Positions 10,098 through 46,001 of a stretch of DNA of 57,877 nt are shown here, piece after piece (position 1 is the stretch's first letter; every line of letters starts with the position of its first letter). This DNA comes from Minisyncoccia bacterium. GTDB lineage: Bacteria > Patescibacteriota > Minisyncoccia > Phycocordibacterales > DATGWK01. Both the position numbers and the translations under genes were made by a program. The stretch spans positions 1 to 57,877 of the forward strand of contig JBBSOY010000002.1 of the NCBI GenBank assembly GCA_038259265.1, given 5' to 3'. Under the pieces are notes generated by a model. The model was given only the letters and a program-made list of their open reading frames with translations. It had not been told where the DNA came from and ran no database searches.

Positions 10098-10757
10098 ATG
10101 AATAAAAAAATCATTGGCGGTATTGTGGTGCTCGTGGCGTTGGTTGTCATTTTTGCGGTTTGGATTGGCAGTAAAAATAATTCAGTCGAATATCAGTCTT
10201 TGGTGAAGGAAAAAGACGCTGTGATGATTGCCGACCAAAAGCCAAACAGCGAAGAAACTGTTGTGCAGTATGCGAAGCTTTCGAAGCCTGGGTATATTGT
10301 TATTTATGGCCAAAATTCAAACGGTCAAAAAGGCGAAGTGCTCGGTGTGAGCGATTATTTGCCAGCTGGTGAATATACAAATGTTGTCGTGAAAAGAAGG
10401 AGTGGATCGGGTGGTTCGTCTTCGAATAAACAAAAAACAAATTCTCAAACTCAGACTCAAACCGAGTCTCAGATGGATGTAGAAAATGAAACCGTACTTG
10501 CTCAGATTGTTGAAGATGACGGTGACCAGGTGTTTACCGAAGACTCAGACGCGGTGGTTGTTGATGAGTCTGGTAATCCGGTTGAGTCCGATGCGACCCT
10601 AGATGAAAATGCAGAAACAATCGATACACAGGATGAATTTATCGCTGAGCTTGAGGATGAAGGATATACCGTAGATACTGATGCGGCGGATGATCTCGAT
10701 CTCGACCTCGCTGCGACTACTTCCGAATCAGTCAACACAACTCCAGAAAGTTTTTAG
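10098..10757 (+). CDS. membrane-anchored protein with highly acidic C-terminal tail
   Basis: N-terminal TM, a small beta domain (PGYIVIYGQNSNGQKGEVLGVSDYLPAGEY), then a D/E/T-rich tail. Confidence 0.5.
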   Translation: MNKKIIGGIVVLVALVVIFAVWIGSKNNSVEYQSLVKEKDAVMIADQKPNSEETVVQYAKLSKPGYIVIYGQNSNGQKGEVLGVSDYLPAGEYTNVVVKRRSGSGGSSSNKQKTNSQTQTQTESQMDVENETVLAQIVEDDGDQVFTEDSDAVVVDESGNPVESDATLDENAETIDTQDEFIAELEDEGYTVDTDAADDLDLDLAATTSESVNTTPESF

Positions 10758-10880: not shown

Positions 10881-11249
10881 ATGACCACTATTTTAATTAT
10901 TGAAGATGAGGCCGAGCTTTCGAATGCGCTCAAGGTTAAATTCGAGCGAGAAGATTTTGCGGTAAGTATTGCTGAAGACGGCGAAGATGGTTTGCGCATT
11001 GCGTTGGAAACCCATCCGGATCTGATCGTGCTCGATATAAATATGCCAAAAATGGACGGGCTCACCATGCTCAAACATCTCCGAAAAGACGAATGGGGCA
11101 GCAAAGTGCCGGTAATTCTCCTTACTAACAACGACAGTGTCGAAAAAATGGCCGATGCGGCGGAATTCGAGGCCCTCGAATACATTCTCAAGACAAAAAT
11201 AAAACTCGACGACCTTGTGTCGAATATAAAAAAAAGACTCCAAAAATAG
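10881..11249 (+). CDS. stand-alone response-regulator receiver domain (CheY-like)
   Basis: ILIIEDE...DLIVLDINMPKMDG...PVILLTN...K contains the conserved receiver acidic pocket and the Thr/Lys positions. Confidence 0.85.
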   Translation: MTTILIIEDEAELSNALKVKFEREDFAVSIAEDGEDGLRIALETHPDLIVLDINMPKMDGLTMLKHLRKDEWGSKVPVILLTNNDSVEKMADAAEFEALEYILKTKIKLDDLVSNIKKRLQK

Positions 11250-32535: not shown

Positions 32536-33654
32536 ATGAAATCCGCCCTCGCCCTCACTCCAAATCAAAAAGGCGCTCTTCCGCACCAGACAATTTTAAA
32601 AATGATTGAAGCCGGTTTTATTGTCGGCGCGGAGGCCAAAAATGTTCGGCCGGCGTCGCTCGACGTTTCGGTTTCCAGCGAAATTTATAAAGTCGAAGGC
32701 ATTTTTCAGCCGCGTGTTGGCGAAACCGTGCGCGATGTTCTGAAGCAAATTAAAAAAGTAAAATATTCGCTTGATAAACCGCTCATGCGGGATCAAATGT
32801 ATATTGCACGTTTGAACGAAACGCTTGATCTGCCAAAAACGGTCTATGCATTTTGCAATCCAAAATCGACGAGCGGGCGTGTTGATTTGCATGTGCGACT
32901 TCTTGCAGACGGCGTGCCGCGGTACGACATGGTTGCGCCCGCTGGCTACAAAGGCGAGCTGTGGATCGCCATCATGCCGAAAACTTTTCCTGTAAAACTT
33001 TTCGAAGGCATTAGCTTAAATCAACTTCGTTTTTTCAATGCTGACACGCGTTTGAACGAGCTTGAAATCGAGCTTGCGATGCGTCAGTTTAATTTGATCT
33101 GGAGCGCTCAGAAAGAAAAAGCTTATACATATGATGATCTAAAAATTAAAGACGGCGACGGTTCAGTCATTTTGACGATCGATCTTGAAGGTGACGTTTT
33201 AGGATACGAAAGTATTGAGGCGACCGCTGCCCTTGATCTTTCAAAGATTGCCCATTTCGATTCTAAAAAATTCTTCAAACCGGTGAAGCTTAAAAACGGT
33301 TATCTCTATTTGGAAAAAGGGAAGTTTTATATTCTTTCGACGAACGAAGCGGTGCGAGTGCCTCCGAGCTTGGCCTGTGAAATGGTTTCCATGGATGACC
33401 GCAGCGGCGAATTTCGTTCTCATTATGCGGGGTTTATCGACCCGGGATGGGGTTGGGGCGAAAAAGGCGAGGGTAAGGGTCGTCAGCTGACGCTCGAAGT
33501 TCGTCCGTTCGAGGATCTCATTATTCGGCATGGTCAGCCTATCGGAAAAATTCGTTTCGAAAAAATGACTGAAATTCCCGAGCTCGTCTACGATGCGACA
33601 TCTTCAAATTATATTAAACAAGTCGGTCCGAAATTAGCGAAGCATTTTAAGTAG
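32536..33654 (+). CDS. dcd: long-form 2'-deoxycytidine 5'-triphosphate deaminase-like protein
   Basis: 372 aa. The N-terminus ...GALPHQTILKMIEAGFIVGA and overall length fit the ~370-aa DCD family. The context (dut, thyX, tmk) supports the call. Confidence 0.55.
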   Translation: MKSALALTPNQKGALPHQTILKMIEAGFIVGAEAKNVRPASLDVSVSSEIYKVEGIFQPRVGETVRDVLKQIKKVKYSLDKPLMRDQMYIARLNETLDLPKTVYAFCNPKSTSGRVDLHVRLLADGVPRYDMVAPAGYKGELWIAIMPKTFPVKLFEGISLNQLRFFNADTRLNELEIELAMRQFNLIWSAQKEKAYTYDDLKIKDGDGSVILTIDLEGDVLGYESIEATAALDLSKIAHFDSKKFFKPVKLKNGYLYLEKGKFYILSTNEAVRVPPSLACEMVSMDDRSGEFRSHYAGFIDPGWGWGEKGEGKGRQLTLEVRPFEDLIIRHGQPIGKIRFEKMTEIPELVYDATSSNYIKQVGPKLAKHFK

Positions 33655-33716
33655 CGGACACATTCCTCCGTGGGTTGAAACAAGAATTTTGATGTAACTG
33701 TGTTGCACGAAATACG

Positions 33717-33745
33717 TTGACAAATAGGTATTTTAGGTGTATACT
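33717..33745 (+). promoter_or_regulatory. sigma70-type promoter of cassette 1
   Basis: TTGACA, a 17-nt spacer, then TATACT. Confidence 0.6.
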
Positions 33746-33779
33746 GGTTAAGTAGTTCTTTGATACCGATTTGCGAGTT

Positions 33780-33827
33780 GGTCATAGCGAAAAGCGGCTT
33801 ACAAATAGGCCTCTCCTCGCTATGACC
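33780..33827 (+). repeat. perfect 11-bp inverted repeat in the cassette-1 leader
   Basis: GGTCATAGCGA, 26 nt, then TCGCTATGACC. Absent from the shorter leader of cassette 2. Confidence 0.7.
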
Positions 33828-33885
33828 ATACCGGCCAATAGTGCCTCCTCGGCGTAGAGGGAAATCAAAATGAAAGGATGACACC

Positions 33886-34305
33886 ATGACACAGATCATG
33901 ACTGCAGCAGAAATCACTGACGGCCAAATCGAAAACGCCGTCAACAAACTCCGCGACGCGATGCGCAAGCATCGTTCCGAGATCACCTCGGATGTCGCCC
34001 AACAGGTTCTCGGGGTCGAGAACCTCGGAATGTTGATGTTCACTCCCTTCCGCGAACGCGCTGAAGCGGTCTCGAACCTCATCGTCCGCAAGGCCACAGT
34101 GAATCGCAGCCGCTTTCCGCAAGAGGCGCTCGAAGCCACTGGTCGCGCGCAGTACACGGACCGCAAGGTCGTGGACGCGATGCCGAAAGGTGAGGGCAAC
34201 GAAGCCGAGGTTGTGTTCTTCAAACCCGACCTCTCGAAGCGCAACGGTTTCATCTCCGATAACGACCTCGAAAAGGAGTTCGATCTCCGTCGCCGCCGTG
34301 AATGA
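33886..34305 (+). CDS. cassette 1, upstream ORF (139 aa, unknown family, GC3-rich)
   Basis: AAAGGA SD 8-10 nt upstream. Paralogous to 41586-41990 (shared ...QQVL..., ...QYT..VV..MP.GEG.E..VVFFKP...GF). Ends at TGA 34303-34305. Confidence 0.6.
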   Translation: MTQIMTAAEITDGQIENAVNKLRDAMRKHRSEITSDVAQQVLGVENLGMLMFTPFRERAEAVSNLIVRKATVNRSRFPQEALEATGRAQYTDRKVVDAMPKGEGNEAEVVFFKPDLSKRNGFISDNDLEKEFDLRRRRE

Positions 34306-34477
34306 AGCCGATCCCGCCTTCGCTGATGAGAAGCCCCACGGCACTCATTGGAAAGATGCCAAGGGCAACTGGTGCTACGCCACGTTCAACCGTTGGGACG
34401 ACAAGCGCGGGGTGTACGTCGACCGCAGCGGCCTCGGCTGGATCGACGGCCGGTGGTTCGCCGGTGTTCGCAAGTAG
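34298..34477 (+). CDS. cassette 1, Trp-rich C-terminal module encoded in the +1 frame
   Basis: ...NEADPAFADEKPHGTHWKDAKGNWCYATFNRWDDKRGVYVDRSGLGWIDGRWFAGVRK is conserved with copy 2, and the differences are synonymous in this frame. The only candidate start is GTG 34298, which lacks an SD. The frame is open from 34190. Confidence 0.5.
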   Translation: MNEADPAFADEKPHGTHWKDAKGNWCYATFNRWDDKRGVYVDRSGLGWIDGRWFAGVRK

Positions 34478-34538
34478 TTCTCAACACTAAGCCACTTAGG
34501 ACTCCGGTCCTTAGAAATGTCCTTCATACTTAGTCCTT

Positions 34539-34575
34539 AGCCCTGTTCCGATTCGTCGGAGCGGGGCTAATTTTT
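34539..34575. terminator. intrinsic terminator (shared with convergent thyX)
   Basis: AGCCCTGTTCCGA-ttcg-TCGGAGCGGGGCT followed by AATTTTT. Confidence 0.7.
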
Positions 34576-35956
34576 ATTTCTGCACAATATCGTGTTCGCC
34601 GCGCTTGATGTCGAAACGGTCTGGGTCGCTGTCGAGATGAATGATGAGGCCCTGATTTTTAAATGTCGTGCCAATCGTATGTGCCATTTGAATCGCGCGT
34701 TTGCGAAGAGTCGTGTGAACGAAACGAGTTGAGCGAAGTTCGGCCAAATAGACAAGCGAATGAAGGGCACCAGTAATTCGGTTTGGCAGTTTGTAACCCA
34801 TCGGGATGTAGTACTGCAACTCTTCTTTTGAAACAGTTGAACCGTCGGATTTTTTAGATTTTTTGAGGCTCTCAATTTTCTTTTTTTGATCAGCGATAAA
34901 AGCAATAGCTTCGCCTCGAAATTTTTCTGGCAGTTCATTTAAATACCATTCTTCAAAACCGTGGCTCATGACAATGAGTGGCATGCGCTGGTTCACTGCT
35001 CGATGACGCTGAATGTCTCGAAAAGAACCGAAGTCGAGAAGAAATTCAAACTGCAGAGTGCCGCATTCGGCGAGTTCTTTTGGGAGCTCGGTTTTTGCTT
35101 TTCGTTCGAGCAAATGGTTTTTATATGTGGCAAGAGTTTTTGTATCGATATCGTTTCGGCTTACTTGGAAATCAACCGCAGCATCGTTGGTGTGATAATA
35201 CAAATCGTTCATCCAATTTTTATTGAAATTTTCAGTCGTTTCAAAACGGGGGTGGCCGAAAGAACTTGGATAGGCTTTTTTGAGCGCGGTTTCAATGACA
35301 TCGGCAACCTGACGAACTTCGGCGAGGGGATGATGTCGCAAACGCATGAGATGGTCCGCTGCCTGACGGAAGTTTGCATGCCAAGCAAGGTTGGTCGAAG
35401 CGCCCGACGGCAAAAAGCCGCGCATGATGTCGAAGGCGCGGGCCTTGATTGCTTTGAGGTAAATTTTTTCGTCCTCATTTTCGCTTCGAGGAAAACGAAT
35501 CTGAAGGTCGGCAATTAAAATTTCGAGGCCGCGCAAATAAAAAGCTCGCCATGATTCCAAAACTTCCGCAGACTCGGCCATGCCGATGGGATCAATAAAC
35601 GCCTGCTTGGCGAAGTCGATGTACCGGGTTGAGGCTTCCTGACCAGAATACAGAGGGAAATCCTGAATGGCCTTGGCGACAAGCATCGAAACACCTTCAA
35701 CAAAAATCGTACCGGTGCCGCAATCGCCAATCGACTTATGTCCGTAGCCCACATAAAAATTGGCCATGAAATTGTCCGAGCCTTTTGCGGCTAAAACTTT
35801 CAAATGACTTTTGATACCGCCGATCGAGCGGGAATGAAGGGCCTGTAGCATCGCCTCGGATTCTGGGCCAATCTGAGCGCCCGTATTTAAAATGAAGACA
35901 AAACCGCCGTTTGGAAGAGGAATTTCGGTGTGAACGATCGATTCGATGTTGCTCAT
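34574..35956 (-). CDS. thyX: long-form FAD-dependent thymidylate synthase (ThyX-like, fused pseudo-dimer)
   Basis: 460 aa. The first half has a ...SGQEASTRYIDF segment (resembling S-x-x-Q-x-S-Q-R-Y). The second half has FRDIQRHRAVNQR (RHR motif). It is flanked by glyA, tmk and dut. Confidence 0.55.
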   Translation of the reverse strand: MSNIESIVHTEIPLPNGGFVFILNTGAQIGPESEAMLQALHSRSIGGIKSHLKVLAAKGSDNFMANFYVGYGHKSIGDCGTGTIFVEGVSMLVAKAIQDFPLYSGQEASTRYIDFAKQAFIDPIGMAESAEVLESWRAFYLRGLEILIADLQIRFPRSENEDEKIYLKAIKARAFDIMRGFLPSGASTNLAWHANFRQAADHLMRLRHHPLAEVRQVADVIETALKKAYPSSFGHPRFETTENFNKNWMNDLYYHTNDAAVDFQVSRNDIDTKTLATYKNHLLERKAKTELPKELAECGTLQFEFLLDFGSFRDIQRHRAVNQRMPLIVMSHGFEEWYLNELPEKFRGEAIAFIADQKKKIESLKKSKKSDGSTVSKEELQYYIPMGYKLPNRITGALHSLVYLAELRSTRFVHTTLRKRAIQMAHTIGTTFKNQGLIIHLDSDPDRFDIKRGEHDIVQK

Positions 35957-38604: not shown

Positions 38605-40353
38605 ATGAAAAATATCCGAGAAATAATTGCAGATGAGTTCAAAAAAATCGGCCTGGAAGTTTTGCCGGCTGATTTGGATTTGCCTAAAAATCTCGCAAAT
38701 GGCGATTTTTCTATTTTTATAAAAGATACAGCTGTCGATCCTTTAAAACTGCCGCTCGAAAAGATTTCAGGAGCAGAGACTCAATCGAACGAGCAAGCGC
38801 ATGAATACATTCAGTCAATTGAAGTTGCTGGTCGCTTTTTAAATATTCGTTTATCACCAAAATTTTTTGCAGATGTACTCAAAGAAAATCTTGCGTCCGG
38901 AGCGGCTGGGGTTGGATTTGGCCGAAATCAAAATCTCGCTGGCCAAAAAATTCTTATTGAATACACTGACCCGAATCCGTTTAAAGAACTCCATATCGGC
39001 CACATGATGAGCAATACGATTGGTGAATCGCTCTCGAGAATCATCGAATGGAATGGTGCGGATATTGTGCGTGCGTGTTATCAGGGCGATGTTGGGCCGC
39101 ATATTGCTAAGGCGATCTGGGGCATACAAAAGCTGGCGGCTGAACGACCAGCTGAAGAAAAAACCTTGGCTGAAAAAAGTGCTTTCATTGGCAACTCGTA
39201 TGTTGCTGGTTCTGCTGCGTATGAAGACGATTCAGAATCAAAAAAAGAAATCGATGTCATCAACAAAGCGATCTATGAAAAAACGGATTCGGAAATAAAC
39301 GACCTCTATACGTGGGGCAGAAAAGTCAGCCTCGATCGTTTTGAAGAAATTTACAAAAAGCTCGGCACCAAATTCGACTATTATTTTTTCGAAAGCGAAA
39401 CGGCGCCGCTCGGACTTTTTATTGTTGATGAACTTTTGGGTAAGGGAATTTTGGAAAAGAGCGACGGTGCGATTGTGTTTAAGGGTGAAAACTATGGTTT
39501 GCATACTCGAGTCTTTGTAAATTCCCAAGGCTTGCCGACCTACGAGACAAAAGAGCTCGGCCTCACGAAAATGAAGTTTGATCGGATCAATCCAGATCAG
39601 TCTATTGTCATTACCGGCAACGAACAAACTGATTATTATAAAGTCATCGTTAAAATTCTCGAATTCTACGACCATCGAGCAGGGAATCGCACGCGTCACA
39701 TTGGTCACGGCATGCTTCGTTTTGCTGAAGGAAAAATGTCGTCTCGAAAAGGCAACGTCGTGACCGGCGAATCGCTCATTGCTGATGTTGAAAAACGGGT
39801 TGCGGAAAAAATTCAGGAAAGAGATTTTTCTGCAGAAGACAAAGCTACAATCGCCGAAATTGTCGCTATTGCTGCCATTAAATATTCAATCCTCAAGCAA
39901 GCACCCGGCCGCGACATTATTTTTGATTTTGAAAAGTCACTTTCTTTTGAAGGTGACTCTGGTCCGTACCTTCAGTACACCCACGCTCGTATCTGCTCGA
40001 TCCTCCGAAAAGCCGAAGAAGAGGGAATTGTGGCGTCTGTTGGTGGTGTTATTGAAGATTCACAAAATGCCCCGAACTCTGCAAGTTTCGTCGAAGAGCC
40101 TGGCGAACTTGAGCATTTACTTATCCGAATGCCAGACGTTGTTGAACGAGCTCAAAAAGAATTAGCGCCACAGCTCATCGTGACGTACGTTACCCAGCTT
40201 GCTTCAGCTTTCAATTCGTACTACGCAAACAACACGATCCTCTGTGACGACAAAGATATTTCTGCGTACCGTGTCGCCCTTGCTTCAGCTGTGAAAAATG
40301 CTCTTGCGAGTGGTCTCTATCTCCTCGGCATCAAAGCGCCGCAGCGAATGTAG
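38605..40353 (+). CDS. argS: arginine--tRNA ligase
   Basis: PNPFKELHIGHM (HIGH) and a C-terminal ...YLLGIKAPQRM ending. 582 aa. Confidence 0.9.
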   Translation: MKNIREIIADEFKKIGLEVLPADLDLPKNLANGDFSIFIKDTAVDPLKLPLEKISGAETQSNEQAHEYIQSIEVAGRFLNIRLSPKFFADVLKENLASGAAGVGFGRNQNLAGQKILIEYTDPNPFKELHIGHMMSNTIGESLSRIIEWNGADIVRACYQGDVGPHIAKAIWGIQKLAAERPAEEKTLAEKSAFIGNSYVAGSAAYEDDSESKKEIDVINKAIYEKTDSEINDLYTWGRKVSLDRFEEIYKKLGTKFDYYFFESETAPLGLFIVDELLGKGILEKSDGAIVFKGENYGLHTRVFVNSQGLPTYETKELGLTKMKFDRINPDQSIVITGNEQTDYYKVIVKILEFYDHRAGNRTRHIGHGMLRFAEGKMSSRKGNVVTGESLIADVEKRVAEKIQERDFSAEDKATIAEIVAIAAIKYSILKQAPGRDIIFDFEKSLSFEGDSGPYLQYTHARICSILRKAEEEGIVASVGGVIEDSQNAPNSASFVEEPGELEHLLIRMPDVVERAQKELAPQLIVTYVTQLASAFNSYYANNTILCDDKDISAYRVALASAVKNALASGLYLLGIKAPQRM

Positions 40354-40467
40354 AATTTCACTAAAATATGAACGTTATTCACCCAATGCCAGAAGAACAA
40401 GTTATTCCATTTTGTATTTGAGGAAAACTTTATTTTTTCATGAATTGTGCTTCAGTACTTTTTATTG

Positions 40468-40998
40468 ATGTCAAAAAAAGAAGTTGTTGAAGGCACCGTT
40501 AATCCAGAAATTATTAAGGAAAAGATTTATATCGTTCGTGGTAAAAAAGTAATGGTTGATCGCGATTTAGCAATATTATACGAAGTTCCTACAAAGGCAC
40601 TTAATCAGGCAGTCAAAAGAAATTTAAAAAGATTTCCACCAGATTTCATGTTCAGATTGACCACTGAGGAAGAAGAATATGTGCGGTCACAATTTGTGAC
40701 CGCACATGCGAATAAAAACAGAGCCCGGGTTTCTGCCTTTACCGAACAAGGCATTGCTATGCTTTCAAGTGTACTTAAGAGCGAAAGGGCCATCGCTGTA
40801 AATATTCAGATCATAAGAATTTTCACCAAGATTCGGGAGATGGTCGATGCGTATAAAGAATTGCGAGAAAAAGTCGAAGAAATGGAGAAAAATAATGAGA
40901 CAAATTTCTCAGAGATATTCAGGATAATTCGCCACCTGATTCATGAAGAAAACACGCAAAATGATATAATTGGATTTAATACCAAAAATAATAATTAA
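40468..40998 (+). CDS. ORF6N (KilA-N-related) DNA-binding domain protein
   Basis: KIYIVRGKKVMVDRDLAILYEVPTKALNQAVKRNLKRFPPDFMFRLT...AFTEQGIAMLSSVLKSERA is the typical ORF6N signature. Confidence 0.8.
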   Translation: MSKKEVVEGTVNPEIIKEKIYIVRGKKVMVDRDLAILYEVPTKALNQAVKRNLKRFPPDFMFRLTTEEEEYVRSQFVTAHANKNRARVSAFTEQGIAMLSSVLKSERAIAVNIQIIRIFTKIREMVDAYKELREKVEEMEKNNETNFSEIFRIIRHLIHEENTQNDIIGFNTKNNN

Positions 40999-41001
40999 TC
41001 T

Positions 41002-41478
41002 ATGCGACACGCTACAAATTGTTTTCTCATCGATGACGAAAAAGGCACGATTCTGCTTTCGATGAAAAAGCGCGGTTTAGGGGTGGGAAAATGGAATGGA
41101 GCGGGTGGCAAAGTAGCTGAAGGTGAGACTGCACTCAAAACCGCGGCCAGGGAAGTGAAAGAAGAAATCGGCGTGGCGGTCAAAGCTGATGATTTGGAAA
41201 AAGTTGCCGAAATTATCTACACCAATCCCGATCCGAACTGGGGTATGAGCGTCGACGTTTTTATTGCCCGCAACTGGCGTGGCACACCGGAAGAAAGCGA
41301 AGAAATGAAACCCGAATGGTTTGAGCTTGAAGAAGTTCCGTATGGCCAAGCCTGGCCTGACCTCGTTCACTGGCTGCCGCGGCTGCTCGTTGGCGAAAAA
41401 CTCAAGGCAAATTTTGTATACAAAGAAGACGGCGAATTGCTCGATACGTTCGAGGTCGCAGTCGTGGATGGGTTCTAA
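41002..41478 (+). CDS. NUDIX hydrolase (MutT-like)
   Basis: Nudix box GGKVAEGETALKTAAREVKEEIGV. It starts 3 nt after the ORF6N stop. Confidence 0.8.
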   Translation: MRHATNCFLIDDEKGTILLSMKKRGLGVGKWNGAGGKVAEGETALKTAAREVKEEIGVAVKADDLEKVAEIIYTNPDPNWGMSVDVFIARNWRGTPEESEEMKPEWFELEEVPYGQAWPDLVHWLPRLLVGEKLKANFVYKEDGELLDTFEVAVVDGF

Positions 41479-41481
41479 CTA

Positions 41482-41510
41482 TTGACTTTTTATATAAAAT
41501 AAAGTTTAAT
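41482..41510 (+). promoter_or_regulatory. sigma70-type promoter of cassette 2
   Basis: TTGACT, a 17-nt spacer, then TTTAAT (or TAATAT at 19 nt). Confidence 0.45.
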
Positions 41511-41585
41511 ATACAAAGAATTCTTTGACCGCGAACTGTTCGTGGTTTTAGTAATCAGTGTTTTTTTCAAAAGGAGGATGACGCA

Positions 41586-41990
41586 ATGGTATCAAAAACC
41601 AGGACCCCATCAGAATGTATTAGCGCAGGACAGATTGGTCAGATCCAGGATCGGATCGGTACCGCTCTCCGAATGAGCGGTCTCCATAACGATCAGGTTC
41701 AACAAGTTCTCCAGACAAAGGGCCGAGGAGACCGGATGATCGAAGATATGATCACTGTGGTCCGCAAGTTCGTTGAGGCAAGGGCGAGCGAGATCGTCCG
41801 TCGGGTCAAGGTGGATCGCACTCTTCAACCCAAGGAGATGCTCGACGCTCTCGGTCGGAAACAGTACACCAATAAGGACGTGGTCAATACCATGCCCCGA
41901 GGCGAAGGTGAGGAAGTCGATGTCGTCTTCTTTAAGCCCGAGCCGGAGGAGTACACTCGGCCTGGCTTCATGAGCGGAACCGGATCATGA
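41586..41990 (+). CDS. cassette 2, upstream ORF (134 aa, paralogue of 33886-34305)
   Basis: Strong SD AAGGAGG. Conserved blocks shared with copy 1. Ends at TGA 41988-41990. Confidence 0.6.
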   Translation: MVSKTRTPSECISAGQIGQIQDRIGTALRMSGLHNDQVQQVLQTKGRGDRMIEDMITVVRKFVEARASEIVRRVKVDRTLQPKEMLDALGRKQYTNKDVVNTMPRGEGEEVDVVFFKPEPEEYTRPGFMSGTGS

Positions 41991-42219
41991 CAAAGCCCTC
42001 GAGCGCCGTAGCCTCAAGCCCGACCCCTATGCCCAAGCCCAGGCTAACAAGGAAGATCCTGCTTTCGCAGATGAGCGCCCCAACTGCAGTCAATGGAAGG
42101 ATGGTGACTCCTACCGCTTCGCCACGTTCAACCGTTGGCGCGGCAAGCGCGAGGTGAACGTCAACCGCGACGACTACGACTGGAGCGACGGCTGGTGGTT
42201 GTCCGGTGTTCCCAAGTAG
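41974..42219 (+). CDS. cassette 2, linker plus Trp-rich C-terminal module in the +1 frame (no start codon)
   Basis: AEPDHDKALERRSLKPDPYAQAQANKEDPAFADERPNCSQWKDGDSYRFATFNRWRGKREVNVNRDDYDWSDGWWLSGVPK. There is no ATG, GTG or TTG anywhere before the conserved block. The frame opens right after a TGA at 41971. Confidence 0.5.
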   Translation, partial: AEPDHDKALERRSLKPDPYAQAQANKEDPAFADERPNCSQWKDGDSYRFATFNRWRGKREVNVNRDDYDWSDGWWLSGVPK

Positions 42220-42311
42220 TTCTTGGGACTTTGTCACTGAGGTCTTTTGGACCCTTTGTTCTTAGTCCTTCGGCGATTTTCGCCACACGTATTCCAAACG
42301 TAAACAATGGA

Positions 42312-42337
42312 AGCCTCGATTTCGGTCGGGGCTTTTT
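42312..42337 (+). terminator. intrinsic terminator of cassette 2
   Basis: AGCCTCGA-tttcgg-TCGGGGCT followed by TTTTT. Confidence 0.6.
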
Positions 42338-42361
42338 CTTTGTCTGCTTTCTACCGCTCTT

Positions 42362-42390
42362 TTGCCAAAGTGCTTCAAAAACTGTACTAT
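42362..42390 (+). promoter_or_regulatory. candidate ileS promoter
   Basis: TTGCCA, a 17-nt spacer, then TACTAT, 11 nt before ATG 42402. Confidence 0.5.
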
Positions 42391-42401
42391 TCGAGCTACT
42401 T

Positions 42402-45400
42402 ATGGCTGATATCCATACTAAAACTCCTACAAAAAGCCCCGTCGCTTTGGCAGAAGAACAGGTCTTGGCCTTTTGGCGCGAGAAAAATGTGTTTCAAAAG
42501 ACGCTCGACAAAGCGGCGCCGAACGGCAACTATGTTTTTTATGACGGTCCGCCGTTTGCGACTGGTTTGCCGCATTACGGCCACATTTTAATTAGCGCAA
42601 TCAAAGACGCTGTGCCGCGTTACCAAACGATGTGCGGCAAGCATGTTGAACGCCGCTGGGGTTGGGATTGTCATGGTTTGCCGATCGAAAATATTGTTGA
42701 AAAAGATCTGAAAGTTTCTGGCAAAAAAGAAATCGAAGCGCTCGACATCGATGTCTTCAACGAATACGCTCGCAGCCGCGTGCTCGACTTCGCCGATCAT
42801 TGGAAAACGACAATCGAACGCATCGGCCGCTGGGTTGACTATGATGGTGGCTATAAAACGATGGACAACACATTCATCGAATCCGTCTGGTGGGGGCTCA
42901 AAAATATTTGGGATAAAAATTTAATTTACGAAGGCACGAAAGTTTTGCCGTATTGCCCACGCTGCGAAACGCCAATTTCTAATTCGGAAATTGCTATGGA
43001 TGGATCGTACAAAGACATCACTGACATTTCGGTTTATGTAAAACTCGCGCTCGTCGATGAACCGAAAACTTTTCTAATTGTTTGGACGACAACGCCTTGG
43101 ACTTTGCCTGGCAACACTGCTGCGGCCGTAAACGCCGAGCTCGACTACGTTCTCGTAAAATCGGGCGACGAATATTTTATTGTCGCAAAAGACAAGACAA
43201 GTATTTTTAAAGAAAAGTTTGAGATTGTCGAAGAAATGAAGGGAAGTGAGCTTGTCGGTAAAAAGTTCAAGCCGCCGTTTGATTATTTTGAAAACAAGCC
43301 GCTGCCGGGAAAAGAAAACGAAACGAATCGCGAAAATGCCTGGAAGGTATACGCCGCGCCGTACGTTACTGCCGAAGCCGGTTCCGGTATCGTTCATTTG
43401 GCGCCTGCGTACGGCGAAGAAGACATGGCGCTCGCTCGCCAGTTCAACATTCCGTTCATTCGTCACGTCGGTTCGGATGGAAAATTTACGACAGACGTTA
43501 CAGACTTTGTTGGTCTTAAGGCAAAACCAAAAGAAGATCATCAGTCGTCTGATGTGCAGATAATCAAAAACCTCGCGGCTCGTGGTGTGCTTTTTGCAAA
43601 AGAAAAAATTATCCATTCATATCCACATTGTTACCGCTGCGAAACACCGCTTTTCTATTTCGCAATTCCTGCGTGGTTTATCAAAATCCAGGACGTCAAA
43701 AAGGAACTCATAAAAAATAACGAAGACATTACCTGGATTCCTGAGCATTTGAAGCATGGCCGTTTTGGCAAAACCATGGAAGGTGCGCCGGACTGGAATA
43801 TTTCTCGCAATCGTTACTGGGCATCGCCCTTGCCGTTTTGGAAGTGTGACCATTGCGCCGAAACCCTTTGCATTAGCTCGCTCGAGGATATTAAAAAACA
43901 TGCACCAGCTCGAAACACCTATGTGGTCATGCGTCATGGCGAAGCGGAGCACAACCTGACCGACACGGTGAGTTGTCTCGTCACCGACAAAAATGGTTTG
44001 ACCGAAAAGGGTAGAAAAGAAGTGACCGAATCAGCGAAAAAACTCGCAGCAAATCAGGTGGCTGAAGGCGAGGCTTCGTCGAAAGAAAAAGTCAGTTTTA
44101 TTTATGCATCAGATTTAGTCCGAGCAAAAGAAACGGCGGAAATTGTTGCTGCTGAGCTTGGTTTGTCTTCGGACAAAATCGTCTACCTTCCAGATCTCGG
44201 CGAACTTCGGGCAGGAATTTACAACGGCAAAACCTGGACGGAATATCGAAAGTCGTTTGCGAAACCTGAAGATCGTTTTGAAAAAGCACCCGAGGGCGGC
44301 GAAACACTCACCGACATGCGTAACCGCGTTGTAAAAACGCTTTACGATATCGAGCAAAAACATGCCGGCGAAAACATTCTCATCATCAGTCACGGCGAAA
44401 ATATTTTCTTTTTGGAGAATGCCACAGGCGGCGCTTCGAAACAGGATCTGATTTATTCATTTATTCATAAATCAGAATTCCTCGGTACTGGCCAGTCTCG
44501 GCCGCTTGATTTCGCTCCAATTCCGCACAATAAAAATTTCGAACTCGATTTTCATCGACCGTATATCGATGAAATAGTTTTTGCGTGCCAGGGAGCGGGA
44601 GGAAATTCTGGCAGTGGGGCAGGGTCGGGCAAATGCGGAGGCACCATGCGACGTATCCCCGAAGTCGTCGACTGTTGGCTTGAATCTGCTTCCATGCCAT
44701 TTGCTCAAAACCATTATCCGTTCGAACACAAAGAACGATTTGAGAAAAACTTTCCGGCGGATTTTGTAGCCGAATATATTTCCCAGACTCGAACCTGGTT
44801 TTATTATATGCATGCAATTTCGACCATCCTTTTCCAAAAAGCACCATTCAAACATGTGCTGACCACGGGCATCATTGTCGCGGAAGATGGGGAAAAAATG
44901 TCGAAGTCGAAAGGTAATTTCCCCGACCCTCAGCGTTTGTTCGACAAATATGGCGTTGATGCGCTCCGTTTTTACATGCTCAGTTCGCCGCTTGTGAAAT
45001 CTGAAGATCTGAGCTTCACTGAAAAAGGCGTCGACGAAGTCTATAAAAAAATAATCCTCCGCCTCAAAAATACGCTGACTTTTTACGAAACGTATCGCGG
45101 CGAGAGTCGCAAGACAGAAGATCGACTCGTTTCAAAGCATGTGCTCGATCGCTGGATCATCGAACGCATGAACCAGGTGATTTCTGAAGTGACCACCAAC
45201 ATGGAAGCCTATGTGCTCGATCGTGCGCTTTTTGAAATTGACGGGTTTATCGAAGATCTGTCCGTGTGGTTTTTGCGTCGTTCGCGAGAGCGTCTCAAAA
45301 GCGAAAACGAAATCGAACGCAACGAAGCACTCGATACATTTTATTGCGTGCTCGTAGATTTGGCGAAAATTATGGCGCCTTTTACGCCTTTTTTGGCCGA

Positions 45401-46001
45401 ACAGCTATACGCAGCGCTCGATGCTCATGCGGACGGTGGCACAGAAAGTGTTCATTTGGAAGAATGGCCGGATTCGCGCCTTACGCCGGTTGAAGACGTC
45501 GTTATTTTGTCTGACATGATGGAAACTCGTCGCATCGTCAGTCTTGCGCTCGAAGCTCGTGCGAAAGCGAAAATAAAAGTCCGTCAGCCGCTTGCGAAAC
45601 TTGTGGTGAAAACGACGACCCTCGAAAACAAACAAGAATATCTCGATTTAATTCGCGACGAAGTGAACGTCAAAGAAATCGAATTTGATACAGAAATTGT
45701 CGACGAAGTCGTGCTCGATACCGACATCACTCCAGCTTTGCAGGAAGAGGGAAATGTCCGCGAGCTCGTTCGAGCGATGCAGGATCAACGAAAGAAAGCA
45801 GGTTTGAAGGCCGGCGACCAGGCCGAAATTTCTGTTCGAGCAAACGAAATGGGTAAAACATTTATTTTAAAATTTGAATCAGAACTTAAAAAATCCGCAC
45901 TTCTTTCGAACATTATTTTCACCGAAGAAAAACATGTCGAAACCGACGAAACTATTTCAATCGAAGGTATGGAATTTGTGTTTAGAATTAACGGGAATTA
46001 A
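42402..46001 (+). CDS. ileS: isoleucine--tRNA ligase with inserted histidine-phosphatase domain
   Basis: PPFATGLPHYGHIL (HIGH), KMSKS, DWNISRNRYW, DFHRPYIDE and CGGTMRRIPEVVDCW. The start is at MADIHTK (42402); the ORF-track extension back to 42135 overlaps cassette 2. See the finding for the insertion. Confidence 0.9.
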   Translation: MADIHTKTPTKSPVALAEEQVLAFWREKNVFQKTLDKAAPNGNYVFYDGPPFATGLPHYGHILISAIKDAVPRYQTMCGKHVERRWGWDCHGLPIENIVEKDLKVSGKKEIEALDIDVFNEYARSRVLDFADHWKTTIERIGRWVDYDGGYKTMDNTFIESVWWGLKNIWDKNLIYEGTKVLPYCPRCETPISNSEIAMDGSYKDITDISVYVKLALVDEPKTFLIVWTTTPWTLPGNTAAAVNAELDYVLVKSGDEYFIVAKDKTSIFKEKFEIVEEMKGSELVGKKFKPPFDYFENKPLPGKENETNRENAWKVYAAPYVTAEAGSGIVHLAPAYGEEDMALARQFNIPFIRHVGSDGKFTTDVTDFVGLKAKPKEDHQSSDVQIIKNLAARGVLFAKEKIIHSYPHCYRCETPLFYFAIPAWFIKIQDVKKELIKNNEDITWIPEHLKHGRFGKTMEGAPDWNISRNRYWASPLPFWKCDHCAETLCISSLEDIKKHAPARNTYVVMRHGEAEHNLTDTVSCLVTDKNGLTEKGRKEVTESAKKLAANQVAEGEASSKEKVSFIYASDLVRAKETAEIVAAELGLSSDKIVYLPDLGELRAGIYNGKTWTEYRKSFAKPEDRFEKAPEGGETLTDMRNRVVKTLYDIEQKHAGENILIISHGENIFFLENATGGASKQDLIYSFIHKSEFLGTGQSRPLDFAPIPHNKNFELDFHRPYIDEIVFACQGAGGNSGSGAGSGKCGGTMRRIPEVVDCWLESASMPFAQNHYPFEHKERFEKNFPADFVAEYISQTRTWFYYMHAISTILFQKAPFKHVLTTGIIVAEDGEKMSKSKGNFPDPQRLFDKYGVDALRFYMLSSPLVKSEDLSFTEKGVDEVYKKIILRLKNTLTFYETYRGESRKTEDRLVSKHVLDRWIIERMNQVISEVTTNMEAYVLDRALFEIDGFIEDLSVWFLRRSRERLKSENEIERNEALDTFYCVLVDLAKIMAPFTPFLAEQLYAALDAHADGGTESVHLEEWPDSRLTPVEDVVILSDMMETRRIVSLALEARAKAKIKVRQPLAKLVVKTTTLENKQEYLDLIRDEVNVKEIEFDTEIVDEVVLDTDITPALQEEGNVRELVRAMQDQRKKAGLKAGDQAEISVRANEMGKTFILKFESELKKSALLSNIIFTEEKHVETDETISIEGMEFVFRINGN

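Follow-up and report, generated by a model that had tools for sequence, protein, structure and literature searches.

The 57.9-kb stretch analysed here (hereafter the window; positions 1 to 57,877 of contig JBBSOY010000002.1, from a Minisyncoccia bacterium) carries two related genes that are each divided between two reading frames: cassette 2, located between a NUDIX gene and ileS, and its paralogue, cassette 1. Both are probably target genes of a diversity-generating retroelement (DGR), orphaned or remote from that element and recently inactivated, that is, young pseudogenes and not genes expressed through a programmed frameshift as the original prediction from the sequence of cassette 2 had implied. 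In DGRs, a reverse transcriptase (RT) and the protein Avd copy the RNA of a template repeat (TR) into cDNA with random incorporation opposite adenines, and this cDNA replaces the variable region (VR) of the target gene.

Two copies of one gene, broken at different places

The coding parts of both cassettes and their lesions are as follows.

41586-41990, + strand: N-terminal fragment of the DGR target gene of cassette 2, an open reading frame (ORF) of 134 aa from ATG to the TGA at 41988-41990
41976-41977, + strand: lesion of cassette 2, one extra G that is lacking in the intact relatives P0001, P0002 and P0003 as well as in the DNA of contig L001
41974-42219, + strand: C-terminal part of the cassette 2 gene in the +1 frame, 81 codons and a TAG (42217-42219)
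42118-42216, + strand: VR of cassette 2, from its BLASTN match to the L001 template repeat and an alignment with 11 template repeats
33886-34305, + strand: N-terminal fragment of cassette 1, an ORF of 139 aa
34280-34281, + strand: junction of a 29-nt deletion in cassette 1, with the gene of the closest relative as reference; the peptide VLRGFKPADP is lost
34282-34477, + strand: C-terminal part of cassette 1, read in the +1 frame; the VR occupies 34376-34474

The arrangement on which the original prediction was built is present in the sequence. The 134-aa ORF is followed by a +1 frame that opens right after the TGA at 41971-41973 and continues for 81 codons without a stop. No ORF of at least 30 aa appears for this frame in the ORF listing, and its earliest ATG, GTG or TTG is a GTG near 42150; since this codon already lies inside the conserved C-terminal block, the C-terminal module could not be initiated alone, as had been claimed. 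It was also correct that the two frames encode one protein: in tblastn, the closest intact relative (P0001) aligned with cassette 2 through residues 1-130 at 41586-41975 and through residues 133-210 at 41983-42216 in the next frame, with a joint E of 4e-83, far beyond chance. Residues 1-130 of the ORF correspond to family residues 1-130, whereas its final four codons and the TGA are out-of-frame read-through.

The G near 41976, which had been singled out as critical, accounts for the break and puts the last third of the protein out of frame. Cassette 2 as found reads AGC GGA ACC GGA TCA TGA, and removal of one G of the GG gives AGC GAA CCG GAT CAT GAC AAA GCC CTC GAG CGC CGT (S-EPDHDKALERR), which restores GFMS-EPDHDKALERRSLKPDPYAQ, where the family consensus is GFMS-D/E-x-D-x-x-K-A-L-(E/D)-R-R. 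Once repaired, the frame runs colinear to P0001, P0002 and P0003 and to the L001 DNA.

The description of cassette 2 as one of two paralogous copies also held, given that cassette 1 spans 33886-34477 with the same two-frame arrangement (residues 4-136 and 151-210 of P0001 in consecutive frames by tblastn) and shares 42% amino-acid identity with cassette 2 before the VR. An exact-protein look-up of the cassette 1 ORF returned no record, and no third paralogue was found in the window. As a correction, the frame of cassette 1 does not break at the equivalent place: in the protein alignment the two breaks are about 10 codons apart, that of cassette 1 being the further on. The lesion lies about 140 nt upstream of the VR in cassette 2 and about 95 nt upstream of it in cassette 1. 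In alignment with its closest relative (the P0080 gene, L032), cassette 1 shows a clean 29-nt deletion (CGTTCTGCGTGGCTTCAAGCCCGCTGACC) after GAGTT, with flanks otherwise nearly identical to L032 and a CG microhomology at the junction; relative to cassette 2 the lesion appears as a 26-nt gap. The lost peptide holds the near-invariant family residues L143, D146 and P147, and therefore a ribosome that shifted frame there would still make a defective protein.

Joining the two frames of cassette 2 gives a 210-aa protein with matches in 94 database clusters, and its best relatives are continuous proteins of 209-211 aa with 66-73% identity at 100% query cover, those named belonging to Moranbacteria, Paceibacteria, Yonath-, Kaiser- and Komeilibacteria. 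A profile search over 1.84 billion cluster representatives retrieved 1,477 clusters at 50% identity (1,145 at E <=1e-10), and among the best 150 of the 1,477 nearly all matches span the whole profile, at about 200-215 aa. At the DNA level, all of the roughly 30 homologous loci in other genomes (~30/~30) have the gene in a single frame, the split being confined to the two copies of this window.

Retroelement context and variable regions

The nature of the gene becomes clear from its orthologue P0003 (66% identity), which occupies the same position between NUDIX and ileS on a 74.7-kb contig, L001. This contig is syntenic with the window, with blastn blocks covering NusG-L11, SHMT, ArgRS, NUDIX, the target gene, IleRS and ProRS, and its local order is ArgRS-Fic-NUDIX-P0003-98-nt TR-Avd(-)-RT(+)-IleRS. 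The TR (11006-11103) and the VR (10529-10626) were compared over 98 nt and differ by 10 mismatches, and because all 10 fall at template adenines, P0003 can be identified as a DGR target gene. The Avd protein matches the NCBIfam DGR Avd model NF033474 (E 5.7e-17). By its sequence organization the L001 locus is a classical DGR, with the Trp-rich C-terminal module as the VR and the downstream copy as the TR.

The same organization was found in other genomes surveyed with a family profile built from 8 sequences. Among 28 further loci, 12 have a homologous RT within 6 kb, the remaining loci having none within that distance, a template repeat was detected in 11, and the gene is directly followed by TR-Avd(-)-RT(+) in 10. 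Mismatches between repeats fell at TR adenines in 8/8, 9/9, 10/10, 12/12, 15/15, 16/16, 17/17, 18/18, 14/15 and 18/19 cases, and the DGR layout is likewise present in a Kaiserbacteria genome (L033). At least one target locus with no RT within 6 kb (L013) bears an unusual signature, GAG-AGC, that is specific to the TR of another locus (L014) about 20 kb away on the same contig (DATDWN010000015.1). This indicates that remote copies, which are normal in the family, are written in trans, in agreement with the non-adjacent DGR targets already known (PMC5758913). Two target copies in one genome were also seen a second time, at L010 (2062-2667 and 3976-4584, in the same orientation with about 1.3 kb between them).

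The notion of a mobile cassette with ends of its own was abandoned, because cassette 2 occupies the NUDIX|ileS position of its orthologue and the flanks shared by the two copies are accounted for by promoter, leader, the end of the VR homology, stem-loop and terminator. A scan for tRNA and tmRNA genes found none, and thus no obvious integration site.

In the window itself, the cognate parts of a DGR are missing: neither an RT nor an Avd homologue was found (tblastn best E 0.87), nor was a third VR- or TR-like copy. Only 65 nt separate the terminator of cassette 2 from ileS, in the place where L001 holds about 1.8 kb of TR-Avd-RT. The mark of a template is nevertheless evident in both VRs, which differ at 13 of 26 template-adenine positions as against 5 of 76 others (Fisher p = 4.5e-6; adenine positions taken from the consensus of the family TRs and not from a TR of this genome), with the differences falling at positions 1 and 2 of AAC-type codons. 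The non-adenine positions of the VRs are 93% identical, compared with 56.9% DNA identity over the remainder of the two genes (p = 3.5e-11). Taken together, the adenine-focused differences and the high identity elsewhere in the VR indicate that one common template wrote both, and the near-identical C-terminal DNA of the paralogues is thus explained by their being DGR target genes, as is, by inference, their conserved 3' flank.

Consistent with these observations, the following course of events may be proposed. In the intact relatives a protein of about 210 aa is made from one ORF, whose last 33 or so codons, the Trp-rich part, are the VR, periodically overwritten from the TR. In the past a single TR would have written both paralogues, after which the TR-Avd-RT module may have been lost from the NUDIX|ileS site, or be located elsewhere, and the targets would now be decaying, each having been broken independently (by one added G and by a 29-nt deletion, respectively). 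It is reasonable to suppose that the module was lost from this site rather than never present there. The lesions lie outside the stretch replaced by homing and homing could therefore not mend them, and since each gene has one lesion and is otherwise open, the inactivation should be recent. Both lesions probably abolish function, as suggested by the structural models described below and also by the loss of near-invariant residues in cassette 1.

Alternative explanations of the split frame

Whether the extra G is real had been a question from the outset, the concern being that an assembly artefact might conceal a DGR target of 210 aa that is in fact intact. Errors in a consensus most often take the form of a 1-nt indel, the cassette 2 gene shows no other damage, and the target regions of DGRs vary within populations and are difficult to assemble. 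However, a 4.9-kb contig of the independent Logan assembly (run SRR24807092, L031) encodes the exact 134-aa product and matches the window over 39898-43990 (4,093 nt) with no gaps and a single substitution (42745, in ileS), the extra G and the VR of cassette 2 being identical. The G is thus reproduced in a second assembly, which may nonetheless derive from the same read set. Furthermore, the site is a GG dinucleotide and not a homopolymer run, where a systematic read error is unlikely; no intact allele of cassette 2 came up in the database search, in which the sole match above 90% identity is a 134-aa fragment (P0004); the 29-nt deletion of the paralogue is atypical of error; and the neighbouring large genes are full length (ArgRS has 582 aa in the window and in L001, and IleRS, NUDIX, DCD and ThyX are intact). 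Two scans of metagenome contigs for the exact junctions (that of cassette 2 with and without the extra G, and the deletion junction of cassette 1) gave no match. An error of sequencing or assembly is on this evidence improbable. Much the same facts bear on reversible on/off switching, in which part of the population would be intact and the consensus would represent the OFF state. Switching could be useful to a putative ligand-binding hypervariable protein, and the regulatory signals are intact, but a GG dinucleotide is not a simple-sequence repeat, the deletion of cassette 1 cannot revert and the two assemblies agree, which makes this explanation very unlikely.

The original prediction had implied a frame change within the 17-nt interval 41974-41990 that would reach the C-terminal module, by programmed +1 frameshifting or transcriptional slippage, and so yield the full-length protein. 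It is true that the C-terminal frame cannot be initiated independently and stays open for 81 codons, that both paralogues require a +1 shift and that promoter and Shine-Dalgarno (SD) sequence are strong. A recoding site would nevertheless have to be a conserved one, whereas the homologues elsewhere are continuous and the shift points of the two cassettes are non-homologous, cassette 2 breaking after GFMS and cassette 1 about 10 codons later with 29 nt missing; in addition, the interval itself (GCGGAACCGGATCATGA) contains no X XXY YYZ motif, no site of the CUU UGA C type, no A/T run and no run longer than 2. Recoding therefore appears extremely improbable. It could also be argued that the 134- and 139-aa fragments are functional truncated proteins for which the VR part is dispensable, as both keep promoter, SD and start, with the cut falling in about the same third of the protein. 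In the structural models, however, strands 69-116 and 166-209 belong to one compact domain (predicted template-modelling score, pTM, of 0.86 for a 155-aa core), half of which a cut at residue ~130 would remove, and no natural member with such an architecture occurs among the matches in 94 clusters or among the best 150 of the 1,477 profile matches, leaving very little likelihood for functional fragments.

Recent inactivation of two DGR targets thus remains the explanation that we prefer, each gene carrying a frame-breaking lesion by comparison with intact close relatives and that of cassette 2 recurring in the Logan assembly. Several points weigh against it. Sequencing might have erred systematically at 41976, or the population might be mixed there, and the Logan run may represent the window's own reads. 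The two shifts happen to have the same direction. Both genes keep their promoter and SD intact, as well as the start codon, and their frames are otherwise open, which would fit very recent inactivation but also some other mechanism of expression. Finally, as the contig is only 57.9 kb long, both VRs may still be rewritten by a DGR located in another part of the genome.

Signals, family fold and comparison with known systems

Apart from the coding parts, the following features were recognized.

41482-41510, + strand: promoter-like site of cassette 2, TTGACT (41482-41487), 17 nt and TTTAAT, read from the sequence
41570-41578, + strand: strong SD sequence AAAGGAGGA, 7 nt upstream of the ATG of cassette 2
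42220-42275, + strand: conserved 3' flank of cassette 2, just past the end of the TR/VR homology; an imperfect inverted repeat with GGACT/AGTCC as outer arms and GGTCTTTTGGACC (42241-42253) as the hairpin inside
42309-42345 (alternatively 42309-42336), + strand: intrinsic terminator of cassette 2, also kept in L001
33717-33745, + strand: promoter of cassette 1, TTGACA, 17 nt and TATACT (11/12 matches)
33779-33828, + strand: long hairpin in the 5' untranslated region (5'-UTR) of cassette 1, common to seven relatives, with 22 pairs, 14 of them showing compensatory changes in sequences picked by eye

Most of what had been noted about the signals of cassette 2 was confirmed. The promoter-like site has an aligned counterpart at the orthologous locus of L001, CTATTGACA-17-TATAAT (with TTGACA as -35), and was left uncalled by the consensus scan because its -10 hexamer has no A at position 2. 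Leader, SD and 3' flank are conserved and cassette 2 has its own terminator; the start context AGGAG(A/G)ATGACGCCATG is kept across the family loci, and AAGTAGTTCT is found at the stop codon of cassettes 1 and 2 alike. The contrast with the host genes is also real, given that 42 of the 45 large ORFs of the window have no SD-like match of at least 4 nt upstream of the first start; in the DGR target genes the SD is AAAGGAGGA or AAAGGA, and the host genes of the window are essentially SD-less. The target genes are, moreover, 10-14 points richer in GC than the contig (0.57-0.60 versus 0.46), and those of relatives likewise exceed their contigs, by about 5 to 23 points (0.63 versus 0.40 in L014).

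In cassette 1 the 10-mer AAGTAGTTCT occurs both at the start of the leader, after the -10 box (33750-33759), and at the stop codon and 3' flank (34472-34481). A related motif, AGTTCTTTGA, opens the leader of cassette 2 (41521-41530, ATTCTTTGAC) and those of L033, L003, L032, L015, L021 and L022, and recurrent motifs of the CTTNG type are present in the 3' flanks.

The TR/VR homology ends at GCAA|G-TAG and is followed by the conserved imperfect inverted repeat, which is a candidate target-recognition stem-loop that may serve homing, by analogy with phage DGRs that need an inverted repeat at this place (Guo et al. 2011, PMC3240598). Support from the alignment is modest: pairing is possible in 65% of cells versus 62% in shuffles, the covariation score was reached in 2 of 500 shuffles, and RNAalifold returned the outer helix only, the three-tier hairpin being hand-drawn. 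In the leader, the long 5'-UTR hairpin of cassette 1 (about 50 nt; its AGC-GAAAG / CTTTCTC-GCT arms are conserved and the consensus energy is -35.7 kcal/mol) has counterparts in the leaders of the family gene in L033, L003, L004, L005, L009, L018 and L021, whereas in cassette 2, L001 and L002 the hairpin at this position is short. Rfam, searched at gathering thresholds over the whole window, gave no match and hence none for the leader hairpin, which on comparative grounds is a candidate cis-regulatory RNA of target genes in bacteria of the candidate phyla radiation (CPR).

Some observations concern the neighbourhood. The isoleucyl-tRNA synthetase gene ileS (42403-46001 in the window, 12543-16196 in L001) encodes an inserted histidine-phosphatase domain, seen in the L001 protein as PF00300 between two tRNA-synt_1 segments and in the window protein as a VVMRHGEAEHN motif. 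Between L11 and SHMT, the window (32536-35956) has dCTP deaminase, cassette 1 and ThyX, and L001 (1869-5214) has DHFR, a CTP-transferase-like gene, dCMP deaminase, HIT and ThyA, so that the thymidylate pathway encoded in this interval differs between the syntenic contigs. A small ORF at 7395-7769 matches the archaeo-eukaryotic primase-like family PF24387 (E 6.8e-13) and may be a remnant of a mobile element or phage.

The C-type lectin fold is typical of solved DGR variable proteins, although it does not strictly define them. Neither the fragments nor the joined proteins had a significant match in Pfam, NCBIfam or PHROGs, and a hidden Markov model search against PDB sequences found nothing for the target family. 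AlphaFold2 models (m0fec668ecbb1 and m7eebeaac054f, for the family of P0001/P0042) reached a predicted local distance difference test (pLDDT) of 89.7 and a pTM of 0.70 at full length, and a pLDDT of 92.6 for the 155-aa core. Foldseek searches of both models against PDB gave a best E of 0.11-0.19 with TM <=0.22, BFVD likewise gave no match (none at E <0.1), and no solved C-type-lectin variable protein of a DGR was matched. The VR scaffold of this family is therefore at least not recognisable as a C-type lectin fold, whereas uncharacterised VR domains of CPR bacteria have been expected to be new variants of that fold (Roux et al. 2021, PMC8144416). More speculatively, the patescibacterial family of 1,477 clusters might constitute a non-C-type-lectin DGR scaffold, expressed in many members, cassette 1 among them, from a leader with a covarying hairpin and an unusually strong SD in otherwise SD-less genomes, of which the window might show an end state, with template and RT lost and the targets decaying; we regard this broader proposal as possible but doubtful.

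For the finding as originally given the result is deflationary, in that no new recoding signal emerges. Instead, the locus illustrates the decay of a DGR, with template, Avd and RT absent at the syntenic site and two targets then inactivated independently, as well as two paralogous CPR targets written from a single template. It also points to a large unannotated family of CPR targets, with a fold not recognisably of the C-type lectin kind and a covarying leader hairpin, that is worth structural and functional study.

Among known systems, the +1 frameshifting of prfB (RF2) has the same layout of a short 0-frame ORF ending at a TGA with the remainder in the +1 frame, but cassette 2 has no CUU UGA C, its split is not conserved among homologues and its paralogue is broken elsewhere. 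With the DGR of Bordetella phage BPP-1, its target Mtd and its IMH/hairpin signals of target recognition (Guo et al. 2011, PMC3240598) the family shares a VR at the extreme 3' end of the ORF, homology that ends at the stop codon and an inverted repeat a few to about 30 nt downstream; it differs in stems of 4-6 bp that are not GC-rich, in the lack of a GRNA tetraloop, in modest covariation and in a predicted fold that matches neither Mtd nor any other solved variable protein. There is also a resemblance to the DGRs of CPR bacteria (clade 2, Roux et al. 2021, PMC8144416; Wu et al. 2018, PMC5758913), where DGRs are abundant and targets without recognisable domains have been reported (PMC8144416): the orthologous loci have the same RT, Avd, TR of about 98 nt, C-terminal VR and adenine-only mismatches, the target is likewise small and without a recognisable domain, and non-adjacent targets exist. 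The window departs from these systems in having no RT, Avd or TR, in the disrupted frames of both targets and in two paralogous targets of one genome written from one template, and the locus is a new, degenerate member of the known CPR DGR targets.

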